A stretch of 64,000 nucleotides of DNA from sequence record NC_027356.1, one strand, 5' to 3'. Position 1 is the first letter of the stretch; every line of letters begins with the position of its first letter. Of this stretch, positions 3,262-31,637 are shown in pieces. A program made the position numbers and the translations under genes. The notes under the pieces were generated by a model, which worked only from the letters and a program-made list of their open reading frames with translations, searched no databases and had not been told where the DNA came from. The DNA comes from Escherichia phage DT57C.

Positions 3262-3498
3262 TTAAAGAGCTGTCTCTTTAATAGACTCCCACTTCTTGGG
3301 GTCTTTAAAACCAGGAAGCATATCTTCACTAACATCCCAGTTTTCTTCCGTAGAAAAGTCTGGCCATTCATTCCAGTTACCTTCCAGCTCTTCATACCAG
3401 GTATCCATTACCTCGCGATTAGAAAGTCGTGTATAGTCTCTAGCGGACTTATGAGTGCTAGCACGGTTAAAATCATTCTTTGCTACAAAATTACGCAT
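3262..3498 (-). CDS. hypothetical protein (78 aa, acidic/Trp-rich)
   Basis: ORF with GGAG RBS 6 nt upstream of ATG. Confidence 0.45.
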   Translation of the reverse strand: MRNFVAKNDFNRASTHKSARDYTRLSNREVMDTWYEELEGNWNEWPDFSTEENWDVSEDMLPGFKDPKKWESIKETAL

Positions 3499-13942: not shown

Positions 13943-13971
13943 TTGCTTTCAGCCAAAAATTTATATATAAT
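13943..13971 (+). promoter_or_regulatory. sigma70-type promoter (TTGCTT, 17 bp, TATAAT) with conserved leader
   Basis: ttgctt-17-tataat then aaatttgagaggag RBS leader. Confidence 0.55.
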
Positions 13972-13999
13972 AGATTTGTAAATTTGAGAGGAGAAAGCT

Positions 14000-19330: not shown

Positions 19331-19359
19331 TTGCTTTCAGGAAAATTTTTCTGTATAAT
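19331..19359 (+). promoter_or_regulatory. sigma70-type promoter (TTGCTT, 17 bp, TATAAT) with conserved leader
   Basis: ttgctt-17-tataat then cataaatttgagagaggag. Confidence 0.55.
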
Positions 19360-19390
19360 AGATTCATAAATTTGAGAGAGGAGTTTAAAT

Positions 19391-20095
19391 ATGGCTGGTT
19401 CTCGCAGAAAGAAACATATCCATGAAATCCCGGATGAAGTCTTTAAAAAGGTTATAGAGCATCTGGAGAACGGTGGTACTAAGAAAGCAGCATGTGAAAT
19501 GCTCGGCGTATCATCCAATCCGACTATGGAAAGGATGATAGAAGAGTGGCAAGATCGCCAAATTCAAGTTGCCGAGATGAAGAAAAAGAAACGTGGCACA
19601 CTCATTGAAGGCATCGAGTTAGCTAACGTTATTGAACAGTATTTATCTGGTGATTCTTTTGAAGAGATTGCCGATCGTAATTACCGCTCTGTAGCAATGG
19701 TTAAATCTGTTCTGGAACGATATGGTGCTCTACTTCGTTTAAACGATATTGTAGACCCGTTGAATCCACCAATTATTCCTGATGATGCTGTAGCAGAAGA
19801 ATTTGAAGTAGGTGAGCTAGTTTGGGTTCCTGGATACCAGTGTATCGGTGAAATCAAAAAAGCAATGGATAATCCTGTTGGTTGTTACCGTGTATGGCTT
19901 CTATCAGAAGGCAAACAACAGAACGTTCATTATATGAATTACGAGCTGGCTTCTGTTAAACATCTGGAAAAGCTAGGGGTTGACGTAAAATCTCTGGGGT
20001 ATAAATGGTCCCGGGAAGAAGTTATCACACTGATTAACGAAGCTGTTAAGGCTGCCTTGAAACTTGATAAAGAAAAAGGAAAACGCCGTGAGTAA
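19391..20095 (+). CDS. helix-turn-helix DNA-binding protein
   Basis: Two HTH-like segments (TKKAACEMLGVSSNPTMERM; SFEEIADRNYRSVAMVKSVLERYG). Confidence 0.55.
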   Translation: MAGSRRKKHIHEIPDEVFKKVIEHLENGGTKKAACEMLGVSSNPTMERMIEEWQDRQIQVAEMKKKKRGTLIEGIELANVIEQYLSGDSFEEIADRNYRSVAMVKSVLERYGALLRLNDIVDPLNPPIIPDDAVAEEFEVGELVWVPGYQCIGEIKKAMDNPVGCYRVWLLSEGKQQNVHYMNYELASVKHLEKLGVDVKSLGYKWSREEVITLINEAVKAALKLDKEKGKRRE

Positions 20096-20339
20096 ACTAA
20101 CTGATTTGCTTAAAGATGGGGAAGTAAAAACACTATATCGTAGAAGCTGGGATAACGATAATAACGGCTTAGTGTTACTAACTTTAGATGCTGACTCGGA
20201 TGTAGTTACTCAACATACTTGGGTAGCCGGTAACTATCCATATAGTGAGATTGTTTCATTAACAGTATGCGAAGCTGTTGCAGACGATTGGGAGATTGCC
20301 AGCATTGATGATATGCTCGCTGTTGGCCTGGTGGAGTAA
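20088..20339 (+). CDS. acidic hypothetical protein (about 83 aa)
   Basis: GTG at 20088 with AAGGA RBS preferred over TTG at 20064. Confidence 0.35.
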   Translation: MSKLTDLLKDGEVKTLYRRSWDNDNNGLVLLTLDADSDVVTQHTWVAGNYPYSEIVSLTVCEAVADDWEIASIDDMLAVGLVE

Positions 20340-20356
20340 CTACTTAAAAATTTCAG

Positions 20357-20385
20357 TTGCTTAATCCTACAATTCTTGATATAAT
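20357..20385 (+). promoter_or_regulatory. sigma70-type promoter (TTGCTT, 17 bp, TATAAT)
   Basis: ttgctt-17-tataat. Confidence 0.5.
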
Positions 20386-20442
20386 ATTCTCATAGTTTGA
20401 AAGAACTATTCTGTTTAATTCTTAATTAAGGAAATATAAAAT

Positions 20443-20853
20443 ATGACTACTCCAACTCAGTGGACTGATGAACTGTTCGAAAAAATGTCTTCCGAATACG
20501 TTGCTCGTATGGAGCAATTCCCAGAGGATGAACGTCCGAGTGTTAGCATGGAAATTGTTAGTGAAATTGCCCAGGAAAATGGTGTAACTCCGAACGGTTT
20601 TCGTATGAAGCTGACTAAAGCAGGTTTGTATATTAAGAAAGCTGCTGGCTCTGCTTCTAAATCTAGTGCATCTACTGGAGAAAAAGCTTCCGGTGGTTCT
20701 CGTACCTCCAAAGCCCAGGCTCATGCCGACCTTCGTTCAGCGTTCTCTGATGCTGGCTTAGCACCAGATTTTCTGGATGATGCAATTATCGACAAACTGA
20801 CCGGTAAAGCGGCTGCTCATCTGGCAGAAGCAATCCGAGCTATCACTAAGTAA
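20443..20853 (+). CDS. hypothetical protein (136 aa), host-optimised codon usage
   Basis: AAGGA RBS; codon choice (ctg, cgt, ggt, tct) unlike neighbours; Ala/Ser/Gly-rich linker; shares a motif with 23739..24506. Confidence 0.55.
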   Translation: MTTPTQWTDELFEKMSSEYVARMEQFPEDERPSVSMEIVSEIAQENGVTPNGFRMKLTKAGLYIKKAAGSASKSSASTGEKASGGSRTSKAQAHADLRSAFSDAGLAPDFLDDAIIDKLTGKAAAHLAEAIRAITK

Positions 20854-20867
20854 TAGGGAGATTATAC

Positions 20868-21155
20868 ATGAATAAACAAGAAATTATCTCCGCATGTGAA
20901 GCCCATAATGAGTTCTACCTTCATTATGAGAAACTACGCCAAAAGGGTACTACATACCTTCAGGGTACTATGGATTTTTCTGATAAGTACCTAAGTAAAC
21001 GTTTTGCTCAGGAGCGTATCCGTCAACCAAAAGATGACGAAATTCTAGTGTTTAGTCGCACTAATGACAGCTTCCGATTTATTCCTGTTGCGAAAGTTCG
21101 TCGCATTACGAGCCTTCAGTCAGAGTTAGATCGTGCTTCTCCAGTAGGCCGATAA
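20868..21155 (+). CDS. hypothetical protein (95 aa)
   Basis: ORF with GGGAG RBS. Confidence 0.5.
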   Translation: MNKQEIISACEAHNEFYLHYEKLRQKGTTYLQGTMDFSDKYLSKRFAQERIRQPKDDEILVFSRTNDSFRFIPVAKVRRITSLQSELDRASPVGR

Positions 21156-21165
21156 GAAACCAATT

Positions 21166-21190
21166 AGCCCCTATATGGGGCTTTTTGTGT
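21166..21190 (+). terminator. rho-independent terminator
   Basis: Hairpin agcccc-tatat-ggggct then ttttt. Confidence 0.55.
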
Positions 21191-21205
21191 ATTTGAGAAA
21201 CGTAA

Positions 21206-21514
21206 ATGAGCGATCAGGTAAACCAAAACTATGAAGGACACGTTGATGATCAGTCAATCCTTCTATGGGAAAAAGAAGGGGAACAAGTAAGATTGACAGT
21301 ATCTGAATTTCGTGGGAATCTATACATGGGAATTAGGTATTGGCTCCAGGATATTACTGGAGAATGGTTTCCAACGAAATCCGGCTTCTCTTTTCCGTAC
21401 ACTCTAGAAACTACTTCGCAGCTATTCTATGCTTTTACGCAAATCCTTAGTGAATCTGAGGTTTTACATGAAGTACAGAAACGAGCTGAAGAACTCAAAG
21501 CCAAGAATGCCTAG
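21206..21514 (+). CDS. hypothetical protein (102 aa)
   Basis: ORF followed by terminator hairpin. Confidence 0.45.
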   Translation: MSDQVNQNYEGHVDDQSILLWEKEGEQVRLTVSEFRGNLYMGIRYWLQDITGEWFPTKSGFSFPYTLETTSQLFYAFTQILSESEVLHEVQKRAEELKAKNA

Positions 21515-21531
21515 TTCTTGGCTTTTTCTTT
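21500..21531 (+). terminator. rho-independent terminator overlapping the stop codon
   Basis: Hairpin gccaagaa-tgcctag-ttcttggc then tttttctt. Confidence 0.55.
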
Positions 21532-21541
21532 ATAAATGTAT

Positions 21542-21570
21542 TTGCTTTCAACTCAGTTTTGATATATAAT
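21542..21570 (+). promoter_or_regulatory. sigma70-type promoter (TTGCTT, 17 bp, TATAAT)
   Basis: ttgctt-17-tataat then conserved leader and GAGAGGA RBS. Confidence 0.55.
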
Positions 21571-21599
21571 ATTTATATAAATTAATGAGAGGATCAATC

Positions 21600-21800
21600 A
21601 TGGCAATGACAGTAACACTTCCCAAGATTCAAGCAAAACTTAATCTGCTTTCCACAGCACGCATTAATTATCAAGATAACATAGGCACAGTAAATCAAAA
21701 GGCGTACAAAGATGCGTTTCTGAAAGAATCTGCTGATTTGATGGATATGGTTACACAATATAATAAAGAACTCAAGATGGAAATCGCCGATGATGAATAA
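21600..21800 (+). CDS. small hypothetical protein (66 aa)
   Basis: ATG at 21600 (GAGAGGA RBS) preferred over the track's ATG at 21585, which lies inside the RBS. Confidence 0.45.
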   Translation: MAMTVTLPKIQAKLNLLSTARINYQDNIGTVNQKAYKDAFLKESADLMDMVTQYNKELKMEIADDE

Positions 21801-22764
21801 TGTAAAAGGCTTTATTAAGCGTTGTCAAGAAGCATATTATCAAGGCATGTCTTTAATCTCTGATGAAGAATATGATCGCCTAGTAAAACGCTTCCCGTTA
21901 GAGGAAGAGATCGGGCCTAAGGGTGATATTCCACATCTGTACCGTATGTATTCTTTACAGAAAGTTTATTATAATCGTGGAGATAAACCCCCATTTAACC
22001 CATTAGGTCAAGTAGAAACTGATAAGTTAGATGGTTGTGCAATTTCCTTATTATATATTAATGGCGAATTTGTTCAAGCATTAACTCGTGGTAACGGTAT
22101 TCTAGGTAATGATGTCACAAGCAACGTAAGATTGCTGAACATCCCTAAAAAGATTTCTCAAAAAGTACCTACTCAAATCACTGGTGAAGTTCTAATTACA
22201 AAAGAAGTAGAAAATAAACGTAACTTTGCCTCTGGTGCTATTAACCTCAAAGATAGTGATGATTTCGTACAGCGTATCGGGGAAGGTGGTTTAATCTTCG
22301 TTGCATACGGTATCCAGTGTTCTGCTGAATCTGTAGGTATTACAGAAGCGTATTTAAAAGATATGCTTTGGCTAGAGAATGAGAACTTCTTAACAGTTGT
22401 TAATGTACGTTCCTTCTTTAAATGGATTCCAACGGACGGTAAAGTTGTTCGTATTAATGATAACAACAAATTCTTCCGTGAAGGCTGGACTAATAAATTT
22501 CCTCGCGGTGCATTTGCTATTAAAGAGGATGAAGAAGGTGAGACTACAACTCTTACTAAAGTTGAATGGAATGTAGGGGCTTCTGGTAAAGTAACTCCAG
22601 TCGGTTATTTTGAACCAGTAATTATTGATGATGCTACAATTGTTAAAGCGACTCTTAATAACGTTGATTATATTAACTCTCTCGATCTAGAGATCGGTTG
22701 CCAGATTCGAGTGATTCGTGCTGGTGGTGTAATCCCGTGCATAGTAGAGCGAGTTTACGATTAA
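21790..22764 (+). CDS. NAD-dependent DNA ligase, N-terminal (adenylation) part
   Basis: Adenylation KxDG motif (KLDGCAIS) and downstream nucleotidyltransferase/OB-fold region; ends in a stop with 200-bp gap before the C-terminal half. Confidence 0.8.
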   Translation: MMNNVKGFIKRCQEAYYQGMSLISDEEYDRLVKRFPLEEEIGPKGDIPHLYRMYSLQKVYYNRGDKPPFNPLGQVETDKLDGCAISLLYINGEFVQALTRGNGILGNDVTSNVRLLNIPKKISQKVPTQITGEVLITKEVENKRNFASGAINLKDSDDFVQRIGEGGLIFVAYGIQCSAESVGITEAYLKDMLWLENENFLTVVNVRSFFKWIPTDGKVVRINDNNKFFREGWTNKFPRGAFAIKEDEEGETTTLTKVEWNVGASGKVTPVGYFEPVIIDDATIVKATLNNVDYINSLDLEIGCQIRVIRAGGVIPCIVERVYD

Positions 22765-22814
22765 TACATAACCCTTTGCTACCCCTCTACCATATCGGAA
22801 TTATAAAGTGGTTA

Positions 22815-22843
22815 TTGACATTTTCGCCGCTTAGGTATATACT
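22815..22843 (+). promoter_or_regulatory. sigma70-type promoter (TTGACA, 17 bp, TATACT) in the ligase gap
   Basis: ttgaca at 22815-22820, tatact at 22838-22843. Confidence 0.5.
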
Positions 22844-22907
22844 ATTATCATTCAGTTGAGGGATAGAAAGTTATGGCGAGGGTAAGCAAAGTTAGTTAAA
22901 ATTGTAG

Positions 22908-22936
22908 TTGCTAAATGCTTAAATACTTGCTATAAT
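22908..22936 (+). promoter_or_regulatory. sigma70-type promoter (TTGCTA, 17 bp, TATAAT) in the ligase gap
   Basis: ttgcta-17-tataat then conserved leader and GGAAG RBS. Confidence 0.55.
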
Positions 22937-22966
22937 ATTTATATAAATTGATAAGGAAGAAATTTG

Positions 22967-23746
22967 ATGAAAATCGAAATTCCAACACAATGTCCCTCTT
23001 GTGGTTCTAAGCTAGATCTTGTCAACGGACAATTATTCTGTCGTAATAAGTCCAACTGTCCAGCGCAATCAAGTAAGTTAATTGAGAACTTCTGTTCAAA
23101 AATGAAGTTAAAGGGCTTTGGCCCGAAAACTATTGAGAAGCTGGAGCTGACGAAGATTTCAGAACTATTTTACCTAACCGAAGAAGATTTGGTTAGAGCC
23201 GTGGGTAGCAAGGTTGCCGCTAAGTTAATTAGCGAATTAAATACTAAAGTTCGCGGAGACATTGACTTTGGTTCAGTTCTCGGTTCTTTAGGAATCCCTC
23301 TAATTGGAGAGGTTGCAGCAAAGAAATTATCCCAAAATTGCACTAGCTTCCACGATGTGAAGGCTGACGGCAAGGCTGGAGAAAACTATAAAGCCTGGCT
23401 AAATTCCCCACAAGGCAAGGATGTTATCGAATTACCGTGGAAATTCTCAAATGGTATTAAAGGTGCTAAAGCTGACATCATCATTACAGATGAATTAGTT
23501 GCCCCGCCAAATGGAATCACGGTGTGTATTACCGGATCTTTGCAAGATTTTGCAAATCGAACGGATGCAACAAACTATCTAGAAGGTCTAGGGTATACTG
23601 TTAAAAAATCAGTTACCAAAGACGTTAAATACCTCATCTGTGAGGATGAATCTAAGCGTTCTTCCTCATCTTATAAGAAAGCCGAAACGAATGGGATAGA
23701 AATCCTGTCGATTAAAGAACTATTGGAGAAAAATAATAATGTCTAA
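22967..23746 (+). CDS. NAD-dependent DNA ligase, C-terminal part (Zn finger, HhH, BRCT-like)
   Basis: Four-Cys zinc finger CPSCGS...CRNKSNCPAQ near N-terminus, HhH-like GIPLIGEVAAKKL, BRCT-like C-terminus; ATG at 22967. Confidence 0.8.
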   Translation: MKIEIPTQCPSCGSKLDLVNGQLFCRNKSNCPAQSSKLIENFCSKMKLKGFGPKTIEKLELTKISELFYLTEEDLVRAVGSKVAAKLISELNTKVRGDIDFGSVLGSLGIPLIGEVAAKKLSQNCTSFHDVKADGKAGENYKAWLNSPQGKDVIELPWKFSNGIKGAKADIIITDELVAPPNGITVCITGSLQDFANRTDATNYLEGLGYTVKKSVTKDVKYLICEDESKRSSSSYKKAETNGIEILSIKELLEKNNNV

Positions 23747-24506
23747 ACTGAACTGGAACGTAGAAGGTGTAACCGAGTCTCTGAAAGCAAAAGCCACTGC
23801 TCTGGGTGTTGCTGTAATCTCTCAAGAACAAGTAGCTGCTATCGCTGCTGAACTGGCTGCTGAAACTGGCAAAGACGTTACCGCTCGCTCTGTTGGCTCT
23901 AAGCTGCGTAAAGAAGGTTTCGAAGTACAGAAAGCTAACGAAGTACAGAAATCCCCGTGGACTCCTGAGCAGGAAGCTGAACTGGTTGATTTCCTGAACT
24001 CTCATGCTGGTCAGTATACTTATGCTGAAATCGCTGCTGCTGTAGCTGGTGGTCAGTTCGGTGCTAAACAGGTACAGGGTAAGATCCTGAGTCTGGAAAT
24101 GACCGCCTCTGTTAAACCAACTGAAAAAGCTGCTGCTGTTCGTTCCTTCACTCCGGATGAAGAAACTGATTTTGTTAATCAGGTTGTTGCTGGTGCTACT
24201 ATTGAAGCTATCGCTGCCCACTTCGGTCGCAATATTAAGCAGATCCGTGGTAAAGCTCTGAGTCTGCTTCGTGAAGGTCGTATCGCCGCTATGCCGGTAC
24301 AGGAAACTTCAAGTGCTAAAACTCGTGAAGATCTGCTAGAAGGTCTGGATCTGGCTAACATGACTGTTGCTGAGATCGCTGAGAAAACTGGTAAGTCTGA
24401 GCGCGGTGTTAAATCTATGCTGTCTCGTCGTGGTCTGGTTGCTAAGGACTATGATGGTGCCGCTAAGCGTGCTAAACTGGATGCAAAAGCTGCGGCTGCT
24501 GAATAA
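23739..24506 (+). CDS. hypothetical repeat protein (255 aa), host-optimised codons; possible abundant DNA-binding protein
   Basis: Four copies of a roughly 30-aa motif (IAA...G.....V.GK.LSL); strongly E. coli-preferred codons; GGAG RBS; strong terminator follows. Confidence 0.6.
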   Translation: MSKLNWNVEGVTESLKAKATALGVAVISQEQVAAIAAELAAETGKDVTARSVGSKLRKEGFEVQKANEVQKSPWTPEQEAELVDFLNSHAGQYTYAEIAAAVAGGQFGAKQVQGKILSLEMTASVKPTEKAAAVRSFTPDEETDFVNQVVAGATIEAIAAHFGRNIKQIRGKALSLLREGRIAAMPVQETSSAKTREDLLEGLDLANMTVAEIAEKTGKSERGVKSMLSRRGLVAKDYDGAAKRAKLDAKAAAAE

Positions 24507-24522
24507 TCTGGTAAATTAAACC

Positions 24523-24558
24523 TAAGGGGAGGGGGCTATGCTCCTTCCCCTTTTTGCA
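24523..24558 (+). terminator. rho-independent terminator
   Basis: GC-rich hairpin aaggggagg...ccttcccctt followed by ttttt. Confidence 0.6.
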
Positions 24559-24588
24559 TTTAGAAGGCACGAAAGCGTGCAAAGGAGA

Positions 24589-26061
24589 ATGACCTTGTTT
24601 AACGTGCAAGCTGTAGTGTTGAAGATGCTTCTAGCTTCCGAACAGAAGCAAATAGCATTGGAAACATTCTCAAAACTGCATAAAGATCATTTTAATGACG
24701 CTTTCTCCTCAATTTACCAAGCCGTCCAGAATTATTATAAAAAGTATAACACAATGCCGTCCATTGACGCACTGATGCTTGAGGCTAATAGGAACGCCCG
24801 CCTTTCTCAAGCTCTAGTCGTTTTAGCTAACACTCAAATTCCAGAAGTTAGCATGGAACAGGCACTTGAAGTCCTAGAGGCCGAGTATACACAGGATTTA
24901 TTCCTGAAGCTTCTAGAAACAGACGTGCTTCAAGATTTAACAATGCTGGATCAGGGAGAAATTCTTAACCGAGTTGCCTCCCTTCACTTAAAATTAGAAG
25001 AGAAAGTAACGAATACTGGAAAAGTATTCAACGCAGATAACATGCGTATTTTCCAGAGAGAAGAAGATACCAAACTGAACTTAATCGCTCTTGGTATTTG
25101 TAATGAGTTCGACGCTCAAATTGGTTTAGCTCGCACAGAAACGTTACTGCTTGGTGGTTGGCGTGGTACTGGTAAATCCATTATCTGTTCAAACATACAG
25201 GTTCAGCAATATTTGAATGGAGATATTGCTCCATACTTCTCAATTGAGATGAAAGAACATGAAGTATTTAGACGTAATCTAGCTATGTTAGCTGGTGTAT
25301 CAGCACTAGCAATGCGTAATAATACTCTAGAAGGTGCAGCTCTGTTGAGATTAGCCAGAACTAGAGCTAGGATGTTTAACGGTGGTGAAGAGCTTTTCGA
25401 TAACTTCGTTAAACAGTATACAATGGCTAAGATGTGTGATTTCTACGATATGGAAAGTAAGCTAATAGAAGGGTATGAGCTACATACTCCTATGATTATT
25501 GTTTATGATCCTGAGCTGTCTATTACAACAGTTGACGTAGAATTAAATAAATTAGTTGCTAGATATGGGGATAAAGTTACAGTAGCTTTACTAGACTATA
25601 TTAACCAAACCCGACTTCCAGACTCTAAAACCATTGATATGTATGACTGGAAAGAACAGATGGTTGTTAGCTCGTCTTTCAAATCTATCTGCCAGAAACA
25701 TAACGTGGCTGGTGTAGCTCCTTACCAGATCGATCAAGATGGTAGAACACGTATGTCGAAGGGGATTCTTGATTCCGCAGACATGGCTGCTAATCTTAAT
25801 GCTGCAAAAGCTGATAATGGTCAAGGTGCTATTATGTTTGACTTCGTTAAGACTCGGTCTTCTGATAGCGTGAAGTTTATGCCTAAAATGAACTGGGAAA
25901 CCCTGCGGATGGATAACACTACCAACCTAGCAATGGAAGATATATCTCAAATGGAAGCTGAGTTCGTTATCCCTATTGAGAAGGATAAGCCGGCTCAATC
26001 TAAACGTGCTAAGAAAGACAAAGCTGAAAATTCAACAGGTGAACAGGCCAGCGATATATGA
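24589..26061 (+). CDS. DnaB-family replicative helicase (RecA-like domain)
   Basis: Walker A GGWRGTGKS and DnaB-like VALLDYINQ motif. ATG at 24589 preferred because the track's ATG at 24538 lies in the terminator loop. Confidence 0.7.
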   Translation: MTLFNVQAVVLKMLLASEQKQIALETFSKLHKDHFNDAFSSIYQAVQNYYKKYNTMPSIDALMLEANRNARLSQALVVLANTQIPEVSMEQALEVLEAEYTQDLFLKLLETDVLQDLTMLDQGEILNRVASLHLKLEEKVTNTGKVFNADNMRIFQREEDTKLNLIALGICNEFDAQIGLARTETLLLGGWRGTGKSIICSNIQVQQYLNGDIAPYFSIEMKEHEVFRRNLAMLAGVSALAMRNNTLEGAALLRLARTRARMFNGGEELFDNFVKQYTMAKMCDFYDMESKLIEGYELHTPMIIVYDPELSITTVDVELNKLVARYGDKVTVALLDYINQTRLPDSKTIDMYDWKEQMVVSSSFKSICQKHNVAGVAPYQIDQDGRTRMSKGILDSADMAANLNAAKADNGQGAIMFDFVKTRSSDSVKFMPKMNWETLRMDNTTNLAMEDISQMEAEFVIPIEKDKPAQSKRAKKDKAENSTGEQASDI

Positions 26062-26948
26062 GTAGAATAACAGAACTACTTGATCTGAAAGGCATTGAGT
26101 ATAAAGACACAGGTGGGGACATCCTCATCTGTTGTCTCAACCCAGATCATGACGATAAACACCCAAGTTTGCGTATTGACCCTGAAACAGGTATTATGCA
26201 CTGCTTGAGTTGTGGCTTCGGTAAAGGTATACCGAGCATTTACCATTATTTTAATGAGACTCAGTACCGACAGTCCCCAAGACTATCCCAAGTACGTAAA
26301 AAGATTTCAGAGATTAGAAATGGATCTACAAATCTTGCAATCCCAGAATCTGCTTTTCTTTTTGAAGGTGATTTCCGGGGTATCAGTTCTAAGACCTTAA
26401 AGAAATATTTTGCTTTCCAACACCAAGAGGACTGGGAGGGCAGAATTGTATTCCCAATCACAGATGCTGTTGGACGCAATATCCTATTTTTGGGTCGTTC
26501 TATAAACAGTTCTGCCCCTCCTAAATACTTAGTAAAACCAAAACAAGTTTCACCACCAATTTTCCCTGTACGATATAATACTCCAGTTCTTATTCTAGTT
26601 GAAGGCATCTTTGATATGCTGAAGCTAGAGGATAATGGTATAGACTATGCTTCCTGCTGCTTTGGTACACATCAGTTTACTTCTGATAACATTGCAGATA
26701 AGTTCAGTCCTTATATTATTGCCGGCGTAAAAGTTGTTGTTATCTTACTAGATAATGATGCTTCTGGTAATAAAGCTGCACAAGCACTGGCCAAGCTAAT
26801 TCGTACAAAAACACGTTTAACACCTGTAGTTGCTAACTTTCTTCTGCCTGAAGGTAAAGACCCTGGTGACTTAAATAAAGAAGAAGTCGATACGTTAGCA
26901 AAACGTATTGAAATTTTAGTTGCTGAATCACTTAAAGATTTGGTATAA
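26058..26948 (+). CDS. DNA primase (DnaG-like zinc-binding + Toprim)
   Basis: CHC2-type zinc finger CCLNPDHDDKHPS...HCLSCGFGKG; Toprim-like EG.FD and acidic DNDASG region. Confidence 0.75.
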   Translation: MSRITELLDLKGIEYKDTGGDILICCLNPDHDDKHPSLRIDPETGIMHCLSCGFGKGIPSIYHYFNETQYRQSPRLSQVRKKISEIRNGSTNLAIPESAFLFEGDFRGISSKTLKKYFAFQHQEDWEGRIVFPITDAVGRNILFLGRSINSSAPPKYLVKPKQVSPPIFPVRYNTPVLILVEGIFDMLKLEDNGIDYASCCFGTHQFTSDNIADKFSPYIIAGVKVVVILLDNDASGNKAAQALAKLIRTKTRLTPVVANFLLPEGKDPGDLNKEEVDTLAKRIEILVAESLKDLV

Positions 26949-30068: not shown

Positions 30069-31417
30069 AGGTTGTTATATCTAATAAAGCCTATTTCAAG
30101 CCCGATGATGAACTTTGGGATTATTGTAGTAAGCAAACCACTTACCACATAGAGACAATGACTAGTAAATACCCTATTATGTATAAGAATAGTGGTGTTG
30201 TTGCCAAAGAGATTAAGTGGATTCCTATTACACGTCTGGATTTACTAGATGCTAAAGGAATAAAATACGAATTAGTTGATAAACGCACGTTAGCTCCGGT
30301 AGATATACCAAAACCGTCGTTTAAACTGCGTGAAGAAGATCAGCTTCCAATATATGAAGAATGCGATGATACCTGCATTATTAATGGTAAGCCTGGGTTT
30401 GGTAAAACTATCCTAGCCCTTGCACTTGCGTATAAATTTGGCCAGAAAACTTTGGTAATCTGTACGAATACATCCATTCGTGAAATGTGGGCAGCAGAAG
30501 TTCGTAAATGGTTTGGGTTTGAACCGGGCATCATAGGTTCTGGGAAATACAATATCGATCCACCAATTGTAGTCAGTAATATTCAAACAGTGAATAAACA
30601 TGCGAATAATCTTTCTAAAGTATTCGGTACTGTTATAGTTGATGAAGTTCACCATTGTGTGGCTACAACTTTCACTAACTTCCTAGAAATATCATGTGCT
30701 CGCTATAAAATTGGACTATCTGGTACGTTAAAACGTAAGGATGGCTTGCAAGTTATGTTCAAAGATTTCTTTGGATATAAAATATTTAGCCCGCCGGTTA
30801 ATAATACTGTTGCACCTACAATCCATAGGTACTCCGTACCAGTTGAATTGTCTGGAAACCAAAACGTACCGTGGGCATTACGTGCTAACGATGTGTATAA
30901 CCACCCTGAATATCGAGGAGCTATTATAAACCTAGCACATTTATATGTGAATATGGGACATAAAGTACTCATTGTAAGTGATAGAACAGAGTTAATCCAA
31001 ACAGTACTAGAAGCTCTTACGCAGCGGGGTGTCACAACATATGAAATTATAGGGGCAACCCACTTAGATGACCGATTAAAAATTCAGGAAGATATAGCAA
31101 AAGGTGGGCCTTGTGTACTTGCAGCAGCTCAAAGTATCTTCTCTGAGGGTATTTCCCTTAATGAGCTATCTTGTTTAATAATGGGAAGCCTCATTAATAA
31201 TGAATCTCTCATTGAACAGCTTGCAGGCCGTGTTCAACGTATTGTCGAGGGTAAACTCGACCCTATTGTTGTAGATCTAATTATGAAGGGTGGCACTGGG
31301 CTAAGACAGGCTTCTGGACGTATGGCAGTATATCGTAACAACGGGTGGAAAACTATTACTATGACTCCAGAGAAAGCAGTTCAATTAGCTAAAATTGCAT
31401 TTGGCAACAGCTCATAA
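30065..31417 (+). CDS. SF2 DNA helicase (DExH-box)
   Basis: Walker A GKPGFGKT, motif II VDEVHH, C-terminal helicase domain. Confidence 0.8.
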   Translation: MKVVISNKAYFKPDDELWDYCSKQTTYHIETMTSKYPIMYKNSGVVAKEIKWIPITRLDLLDAKGIKYELVDKRTLAPVDIPKPSFKLREEDQLPIYEECDDTCIINGKPGFGKTILALALAYKFGQKTLVICTNTSIREMWAAEVRKWFGFEPGIIGSGKYNIDPPIVVSNIQTVNKHANNLSKVFGTVIVDEVHHCVATTFTNFLEISCARYKIGLSGTLKRKDGLQVMFKDFFGYKIFSPPVNNTVAPTIHRYSVPVELSGNQNVPWALRANDVYNHPEYRGAIINLAHLYVNMGHKVLIVSDRTELIQTVLEALTQRGVTTYEIIGATHLDDRLKIQEDIAKGGPCVLAAAQSIFSEGISLNELSCLIMGSLINNESLIEQLAGRVQRIVEGKLDPIVVDLIMKGGTGLRQASGRMAVYRNNGWKTITMTPEKAVQLAKIAFGNSS

Positions 31418-31429
31418 ATGATGTATAAT
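31401..31429 (+). promoter_or_regulatory. sigma70-type promoter (TTGGCA, 17 bp, TATAAT)
   Basis: Overlaps the helicase 3' end; conserved leader follows. Confidence 0.45.
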
Positions 31430-31500
31430 ATATACATAAATTTGAGAGAGAAAGTTTCGGATTGATAAGAAAGTCCGAAGCAGAAAAATAAAAATTTTAG

Positions 31501-31530
31501 TTGCTAAATTCTCTCGAAATCTAGTATAAT
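31501..31530 (+). promoter_or_regulatory. sigma70-type promoter (TTGCTA, 18 bp, TATAAT)
   Basis: Second of two tandem promoters upstream of 31638/31915. Confidence 0.5.
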
Positions 31531-31637
31531 ATATACATAAATTCGAGGAGAAAACAAAAATTAAATTCTTCGATTATGAAAGGCTATATTTACTAGCTAG
31601 AGGAAATTCCGACCTAATTATTAAGCTATTCAAAAGA

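Follow-up and report, generated by a model that had tools for sequence, protein, structure and literature searches.

A T5-type split NAD+-dependent DNA ligase and the promoter-bearing spacer between its two genes in Escherichia phage DT57C

The DNA ligase LigA of Escherichia coli (PDB 2owo) is a single chain of 671 aa that consists of, in this order, domain Ia, the nucleotidyltransferase (NTase) domain, the OB fold, the zinc finger (Zn), the HhH region and the BRCT domain. In Escherichia phage DT57C (sequence record NC_027356.1), corresponding domains, with domain Ia and the HhH region assigned more tentatively than the others, follow in the same order, and the lysine of the KxDG motif and the four cysteines of the zinc finger are shared with the E. 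coli enzyme, but the domains are divided between two proteins of 324 and 259 aa, with shorter NTase and HhH regions. The respective genes, ligA and ligB, are separated by a short stretch of non-coding DNA, which raises the question whether their products assemble into one ligase, act separately, or are the pieces of a single polypeptide that was broken by error or decay, or is restored by a dedicated device. We analyzed this locus within a window of 64,000 nucleotides, that is, the whole stretch of phage DNA under study; all coordinates below are those of the window, and all features given with coordinates are on the plus strand.

The locus is a T5-type split ligA/ligB of a close relative of bacteriophage T5, an arrangement that is already known and ordinary for this phage family. 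The split T5 ligase is stated in PMC1684257, where the passage on T5 cites Wang et al. 2005, the T5 genome paper, so that the split has been described since 2005; T5 ligA (AAU05253) and ligB (AAU05254) are given as subunits A and B in PMC3632103, and phage Stitch likewise has ligase subunits A and B (PMC4319617). In the T5 record NC_005859, the order is ligA (T5.116, YP_006944), promoter P-K 28b, promoter P-K 28a, ligB (T5.117, YP_006945), D5 and D6 helicase. The window shows the same genes, the same order and the same break point, and the synteny with T5 extends along the early replication cluster (D2, D3, T5.115, ligA, ligB, D5, D6 helicase, primase). The proteins are 98.8% (LigA) and 97.3% (LigB) identical to their T5 counterparts, and the spacers between the two genes, both 202 bp long, differ in one base. 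The only other difference of note is that a 66-aa ORF located upstream of ligA in the window is missing in T5, which has 87 bp between T5.115 and ligA. Escherichia phage DT571/2 (KM979355; Tequintavirus, Demerecviridae), with 99.1% DNA identity over 21500-24000 and an identical set of genes, the 66-aa ORF among them, is essentially the same phage.

The two subunit genes and their transcription

The ligA gene (21790..22764) encodes the large subunit of 324 aa, which comprises a short, putative domain Ia, the nucleotidyltransferase domain with the KxDG motif, and the OB fold. The Pfam search yielded highly significant matches to PF01653 DNA_ligase_aden (E = 2.3e-23, 83.5 bits, cut-off 27) and PF03120 DNA_ligase_OB (E = 6.2e-22, 77.7 bits, cut-off 32.9, residues 252-322), and the search for the KxDG motif identified the motif I lysine as K79, in the form KLDG. 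Domain Ia is the NMN-binding element that confers NAD+ specificity. In the phage protein, the putative domain Ia is far shorter than its counterpart in bacterial LigA, with residues 14-36 (EAYYQGMSLISDEEYDRL) corresponding to the AYY...DDEYDRL motif of 8ak4 in a local match that is visible by eye and scores 1.8 bits alone. An earlier note on this DNA had described the ORF ending at 22764 as the adenylation half of a ligase with a KxDG motif; the coordinates and the motif stand, but the description is too narrow because, given the PF03120 match within 21790-22764, this ORF encodes more than the adenylation half.

The ligB gene (22967..23746) encodes the small subunit, a protein of 259 aa with a Cys4 zinc finger, a probable HhH region and a BRCT domain, in agreement with the earlier proposal that the Zn-finger/HhH/BRCT half is a separate ORF that starts at 22967. 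The zinc finger is formed by C9, C12, C25 and C31, which are kept in five genera in the protein alignment and lie inside the stretch that aligns to E. coli LigA from residue 402. The BRCT domain (PF00533, residues 183-255) was detected with 35.4 bits (E = 1.3e-8, cut-off 21.3). The shortened HhH region matched PF12826 (HHH_2) with 24.4 bits, less than the curated threshold of 27 bits; in the comparison with E. coli LigA, LigB residues 3-122 pair with residues 402-529 (E = 2.1e-12 for the whole protein). AlphaFold2, run on the LigB sequence alone, gave a model with a mean pLDDT of 35.9 and a pTM of 0.21, and no structural claim is drawn from it. The length of 259 aa is counted from the ATG at 22967; the ORF listing opens at a TTG at 22964, and the DT571/2 record gives ligB from the TTG (260 aa), whereas in T5 and in the PDB chain discussed below, the protein starts from the ATG. 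A Shine-Dalgarno sequence, AAGGAAG (22953..22959), can be read 7 nt ahead of the ATG.

The non-coding spacer between the two genes (22765..22966; 202 bp) contains stop codons in all three frames, including seven in the frame of ligA, and ligA and ligB are in different frames, so that no single frameshift or base error would join the two ORFs. A consensus scan of 20000-26500 for sigma-70 promoters produced its two best plus-strand matches in the spacer, at the coordinates for which the earlier note had proposed two promoters: the P-K28b core (22815..22843; TTGACA/17 nt/TATACT, 11/12) and the P-K28a core (22908..22936; TTGCTA/17 nt/TATAAT with TG, 10/12), the latter followed downstream by the T5 leader ATAAATTGA. 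The promoter features of the T5 record, when shifted to window coordinates, enclose both sites and provide their names. The total number of promoter-like matches in the scanned interval (18 versus 15.5 +/- 3.0 by chance) is not above the chance expectation, and therefore the weight rests on the conservation and the T5 annotation, not on the scan. Both hexamers of P-K28b are invariant in Tequintavirus, Sugarlandvirus and Shenzhenvirus; in P-K28a, the -35 TTGCT is invariant, and the -10 hexamer is TATAAT in the four phages with enterobacterial hosts and TATACT in Aeromonas phage AhSzw-1. Across 434 phage records, the identity of the entire spacer is 95% or higher. The two elements correspond to the named T5 promoters and are predicted to be active in this phage.

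The P-K28a site shares a promoter cassette, composed of an A-rich upstream tract, TTGCT, 17 nt, TATAAT, ATAAATT(T)GA and an RBS, with other promoters of the window, at least 10 in all, so that the conserved leader/RBS cassette claimed previously is real. This cassette is seen only as a loose promoter-plus-leader pattern; the leader as an exact repeat was considered and rejected, the leader 18-mer TATAAATTGATAAGGAAG having a single occurrence in the window when up to 3 mismatches are allowed.

Terminator-like hairpins are located on both sides of the locus. The first of these (21497..21525), located after the T5.115 homolog, has a stem of 12 pairs and then a run of T, and closes the preceding unit; the second, stronger one (24524..24552), with a 13-pair stem that includes 8 G-C pairs and is followed by TTTTTGC, ends the ligA-ligB-D5 unit. 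Both ligase genes would lie within this one terminator-bounded unit. A T5-type early promoter (21542..21570; TTGCTT/17 nt/TATAAT with the leader ATAAATTAATGAGAGGA), recognized in the cassette scan and by inspection of the sequence, precedes the 66-aa ORF and ligA, and the T5 record also annotates a promoter just upstream of ligA. The 66-aa ORF (21600..21800), the end of which overlaps the ligA start by 11 nt, is annotated as a hypothetical protein in DT571/2 and had no match in the Pfam scan. The gene for the D5 DNA-binding protein (23739..24506; identified from the ORF list and the annotation of DT571/2 and T5) overlaps the ligB stop by 8 nt, which places D5 in the ligB transcription unit.

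In the transcription scheme suggested by this layout, the promoter at 21542 would drive the 66-aa ORF and ligA and, because there is no terminator after ligA, the ligA transcripts probably continue into ligB. P-K28b and P-K28a, two early promoters in tandem, would add transcription of ligB and D5, so that ligB is probably transcribed both by read-through and from the spacer. Because of this predicted addition, the spacer appears to be a functional promoter module for increased expression of ligB and D5 rather than a remnant. The extra promoters in the spacer also imply that LigB could be produced in excess over LigA, which would leave room for a second role of LigB.

Conservation and position of the break

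The split is kept in five genera of Demerecviridae, and the phage records that show it number more than 400. In 427 phage records, at least 80% of the 2.5-kb region surrounding the locus is present, with most of the matches in the 90-99% identity bands, compared to 95% or more for the spacer in 434 records. Hundreds of records carry annotations for the two ORFs, either 'NAD-dependent DNA ligase large/small subunit' or 'subunit A/B'. In every genus examined, ligA and ligB are neighbors in the same order. The gap between them is 199 bp in Klebsiella phage KpGranit (Sugarlandvirus) and 178 bp in Aeromonas phage AhSzw-1 (Shenzhenvirus); in Vibrio phage 70E34-1a, it reaches 443 bp and includes two small ORFs, and in Vibrio phage Noelle (Thalassavirus), 1,374 bp with three ORFs. 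The presence of other ORFs between the halves in the two Vibrio phages indicates that ligA and ligB are independent cistrons. The identity to the homologs from KpGranit, AhSzw-1 and 70E34-1a is, respectively, 72%, 47% and 52% for LigA, and 73%, 45% and 48% for LigB. Such equal divergence of the halves is the pattern that partners under joint constraint would show.

Comparison with single-chain LigA, proposed in the earlier note as the means to place the break, located it at the junction of the OB fold and the zinc finger. LigA residue 321 corresponds to residue 390 of E. coli LigA (2owo) and LigB residue 3 corresponds to residue 402, so that the cut falls in the linker between these two domains; in the C-terminal part, LigB residues 164-253 align with E. 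coli LigA 581-666. Furthermore, when the LigA and LigB sequences are concatenated, they give an uninterrupted alignment with two phage ligases that are single chains, those of YerA41 (637 aa) and Ab1-TPeters (613 aa), and the break point occupies the same alignment position in all five genera with the split, Tequintavirus, Sugarlandvirus, Shenzhenvirus and that of Vibrio phage 70E34-1a among them.

Phage 'genes in pieces' include T4 topoisomerase genes 39/60 and nrdA of Aeromonas phage Aeh1, which is split by mobE. In both cases, an essential replication enzyme is encoded in two parts, and the resulting chains come together non-covalently; a homing endonuclease or a bypass element is associated with each of these splits. 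The ligase gene could have been cut in a similar manner, by insertion of a homing-endonuclease gene that was later lost, leaving the promoters behind; this scenario concerns only the origin of the split and is compatible with a two-subunit enzyme. Many HNH endonuclease genes are indeed present in T5-like genomes, for example, hegI and hegJ near the locus in T5, and the gap is filled with extra ORFs in the Vibrio relatives. However, the Pfam scan of the five gap ORFs of the Vibrio phages revealed no endonuclease domain, whether HNH, GIY-YIG or of another type, and no significant match to a domain of any other kind, and none of the relatives examined carries an endonuclease in the gap; in contrast to the T4 and Aeh1 splits, the gap here holds promoters. 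The small ORFs upstream of ligA also showed no homing endonuclease and no other significant domain in the Pfam scan. We consider an endonuclease origin conceivable but unlikely.

Joint or separate action of the two chains

Homologs of both proteins are present together in the PDB. The PDB sequence search identified the entries 9hu3 and 9i5i, each with a 'DNA ligase (NAD(+))' (chain A) and a 'DNA ligase subunit B' (chain B) as separate chains. Chain A of 9hu3 (339 aa) matches LigA (324 aa) with E = 7.9e-103, with the alignment reaching the last residue of LigA, and chain B (248 aa) matches LigB (259 aa) from residue 1 with E = 1.3e-79. Chain B is 100% identical to the product of a gene of the T5-like Providencia phages vB_PreS_PR1 and PSTCR5. 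The LigA-LigB pair of a Providencia phage, which belongs to another T5-like genus and has diverged in sequence, shows the same termini and the same domain content. In the literature searched, we found no paper describing 9hu3 or 9i5i and no biochemical study of the T5 or DT571/2 ligase or of any T5-type split ligase; the ligase passages of PMC12916289 and of bioRxiv 10.64898/2026.04.02.716235 turned out to be irrelevant to a split ligase. An experiment on a single-chain enzyme bears on the question: LigN truncated to mimic the T5 large subunit (Ia, adenylation and OB domains) adenylates itself normally but is inactive in DNA joining (PMC1684257). The C-terminal domains are hence needed for joining and, by analogy, this result supports a requirement of LigA for LigB.

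We estimate the probability that the locus encodes a non-covalent, two-subunit NAD+-dependent LigA of Tequintavirus, for which we infer heterodimer formation and a catalytic division between the chains, at about 0.9; the view in the earlier note that the enzyme would have to assemble from two polypeptides is thereby supported. In such an enzyme, domain Ia and the nucleotidyltransferase domain of LigA would react with NAD+, with K79 becoming adenylylated, and the zinc finger, HhH and BRCT of LigB would be responsible for DNA clamping and nick sensing. The two proteins would associate non-covalently, on or off DNA, and rebuild the ring of single-chain LigA around the nick, after which the complex would pass AMP to the 5' phosphate and seal the nick.

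The weaker reading, also raised in the earlier note, is that the two halves act separately, LigA being a self-sufficient minimal ligase or a mere adenylyltransferase, and LigB an independent DNA- or nick-binding BRCT protein that might, for example, shield or tag the site-specific nicks in T5 DNA, or bring in replication factors. In favor of this possibility, ligB is preceded by its own pair of strong promoters and is linked to D5, not to ligA, and the distance between the two genes grows to as much as 1.4 kb in the Vibrio phages, where other genes separate them. However, the two genes remain neighbors in a fixed order in every genus examined and diverge equally, their homologs are combined in one PDB entry, where one is named 'subunit B', and LigN truncated in a comparable way fails to join DNA. 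Considering these observations, separate action appears improbable compared to a two-subunit enzyme.

Introns, split inteins and ribosomal bypass are all used by phages, and one polypeptide might be restored here by any of these devices, be it an intron, protein trans-splicing by a split intein, or a bypass of the T4 gene 60 kind. The Rfam scan of 21400-24000 (E <= 1) returned two chance matches well under the gathering scores, none of them in the spacer and none to an intron or other RNA family at the required score, and the predicted RNA folding of the spacer is no better than that of shuffled sequence (z = -0.47). These results give no reason to propose an intron, a riboswitch or an attenuator, and the spacer consists of promoter DNA. 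At the protein level, LigA terminates where the OB fold ends, and a few residues precede the zinc finger in LigB, with neither chain carrying additional intein-like residues, and the PDB chains are separate and have the same natural termini. In the Vibrio phages, whole genes lie in the gap. The earlier statement that there is no sign of an intron or intein thus holds, and the restoration of a single chain is very improbable.

Finally, a sequencing error or frameshift, the objection that the earlier note had itself raised, or decay of a single-chain ligA into a pseudogene, has in its favor only the bare fact of two ORFs and can be dismissed as practically excluded by the stop codons in all frames of the spacer and the different frames of the two genes, by the RBS, ATG and promoters that belong to ligB itself, and by the presence of the same structure in at least 427 independently sequenced records and in distant genera whose proteins are 45-72% identical.

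The split in the biology of T5-like phages

The discovery value of this locus is small, given that the split has been known since 2005 and is annotated in hundreds of genomes, the promoters have names, and homologous subunits have been solved together. Rather, the locus offers a clear case from nature in which an essential enzyme of replication is cut at a domain linker and appears to be reassembled from two chains. Candidate reasons for the maintenance of the split throughout the family include the ligB-D5 promoter module, the stoichiometry of the subunits, and the control of nick sealing.

A more speculative possibility, to which we assign a low likelihood, is that the split is a regulatory device and not a neutral accident, such that LigB, which has two additional strong early promoters and is predicted to be co-expressed with D5, is made in excess over the catalytic subunit or on a schedule of its own and has a second role, or the supply of a subunit tunes the ligase. 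If this were the case, LigB might occupy the site-specific nicks of T5 DNA, or the ligase might be tuned by the supply of one subunit, allowing programmed nicks to survive into the packaged genomes.

Conservation of the ligA-ligB spacer and the promoter cassette

The non-coding spacer between ligA and ligB (22765-22966) is at least 99% identical in 202 phage records and 95-99% identical in 232 further ones, whereas a search with the surrounding 2.5-kb region yielded only 3 records at 99% or above, with 268 as low as 90-95%. This very high conservation of the spacer is consistent with strong selection acting on the promoter module.

A pattern scan of the window identified at least 10 strong T5-type promoters built on one common cassette that consists of an upstream A-rich tract, TTGCT, 17 nt, TATAAT and ATAAATT(T)GA, followed by the ribosome-binding site. 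On the plus strand, these are located at 13943-13986, 19331-19374 (upstream of the D2 gene), 21542-21583, 22908-22951, 31401-31444 and 31501-31543, and on the minus strand, at 342-301, 1182-1139, 2530-2489 and 4123-4079. The position of the 19331 promoter upstream of D2 matches that of P-N25 in the T5 record. In the minus-strand promoter 2530-2489, the -10 element and leader are present as a tandem duplicate (TCTGTATAATATATTCATAAAT x2), resulting in two overlapping -10 elements.

Variation around the split ligase genes

The interval between the T5.115 homologue and ligA (window 21515-21800) is a variable slot. In T5, it comprises 87 bp (L009, the T5 locus, 3278-3364) and contains only a promoter, whereas in the window and in DT571/2, it holds a 66-aa ORF (window 21600-21800), to which oldekolle (locus L002, 1516-2075) adds another of 90 aa. 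Pfam gives no match for either of the two. In two T5-like Vibrio phages, ligA and ligB are themselves separated by ORFs, three in Noelle (locus L004, 2769-3987) and two in 70E34-1a (locus L008, 2757-3217); none of the five contains a significant Pfam domain, and there is no endonuclease among them.

In the alignment with the single-chain LigA of YerA41 (locus L006, 1771-3684) and Ab1-TPeters (locus L007, 1762-3603), two unrelated phages, cysteines are absent from the Cys4 positions of the split enzymes, and the zinc finger may be missing altogether from these proteins.

Start of the DnaB-like helicase gene

In the stretch 24524-24600, the DnaB-like helicase ORF is taken to begin, both here and in the DT571/2 record, with an ATG at 24538 that falls inside the loop of a strong terminator hairpin (24524-24552). 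An alternative ATG at 24589, preceded by AAAGGAG, looks like the more plausible start, in which case the helicase would be 17 residues shorter.
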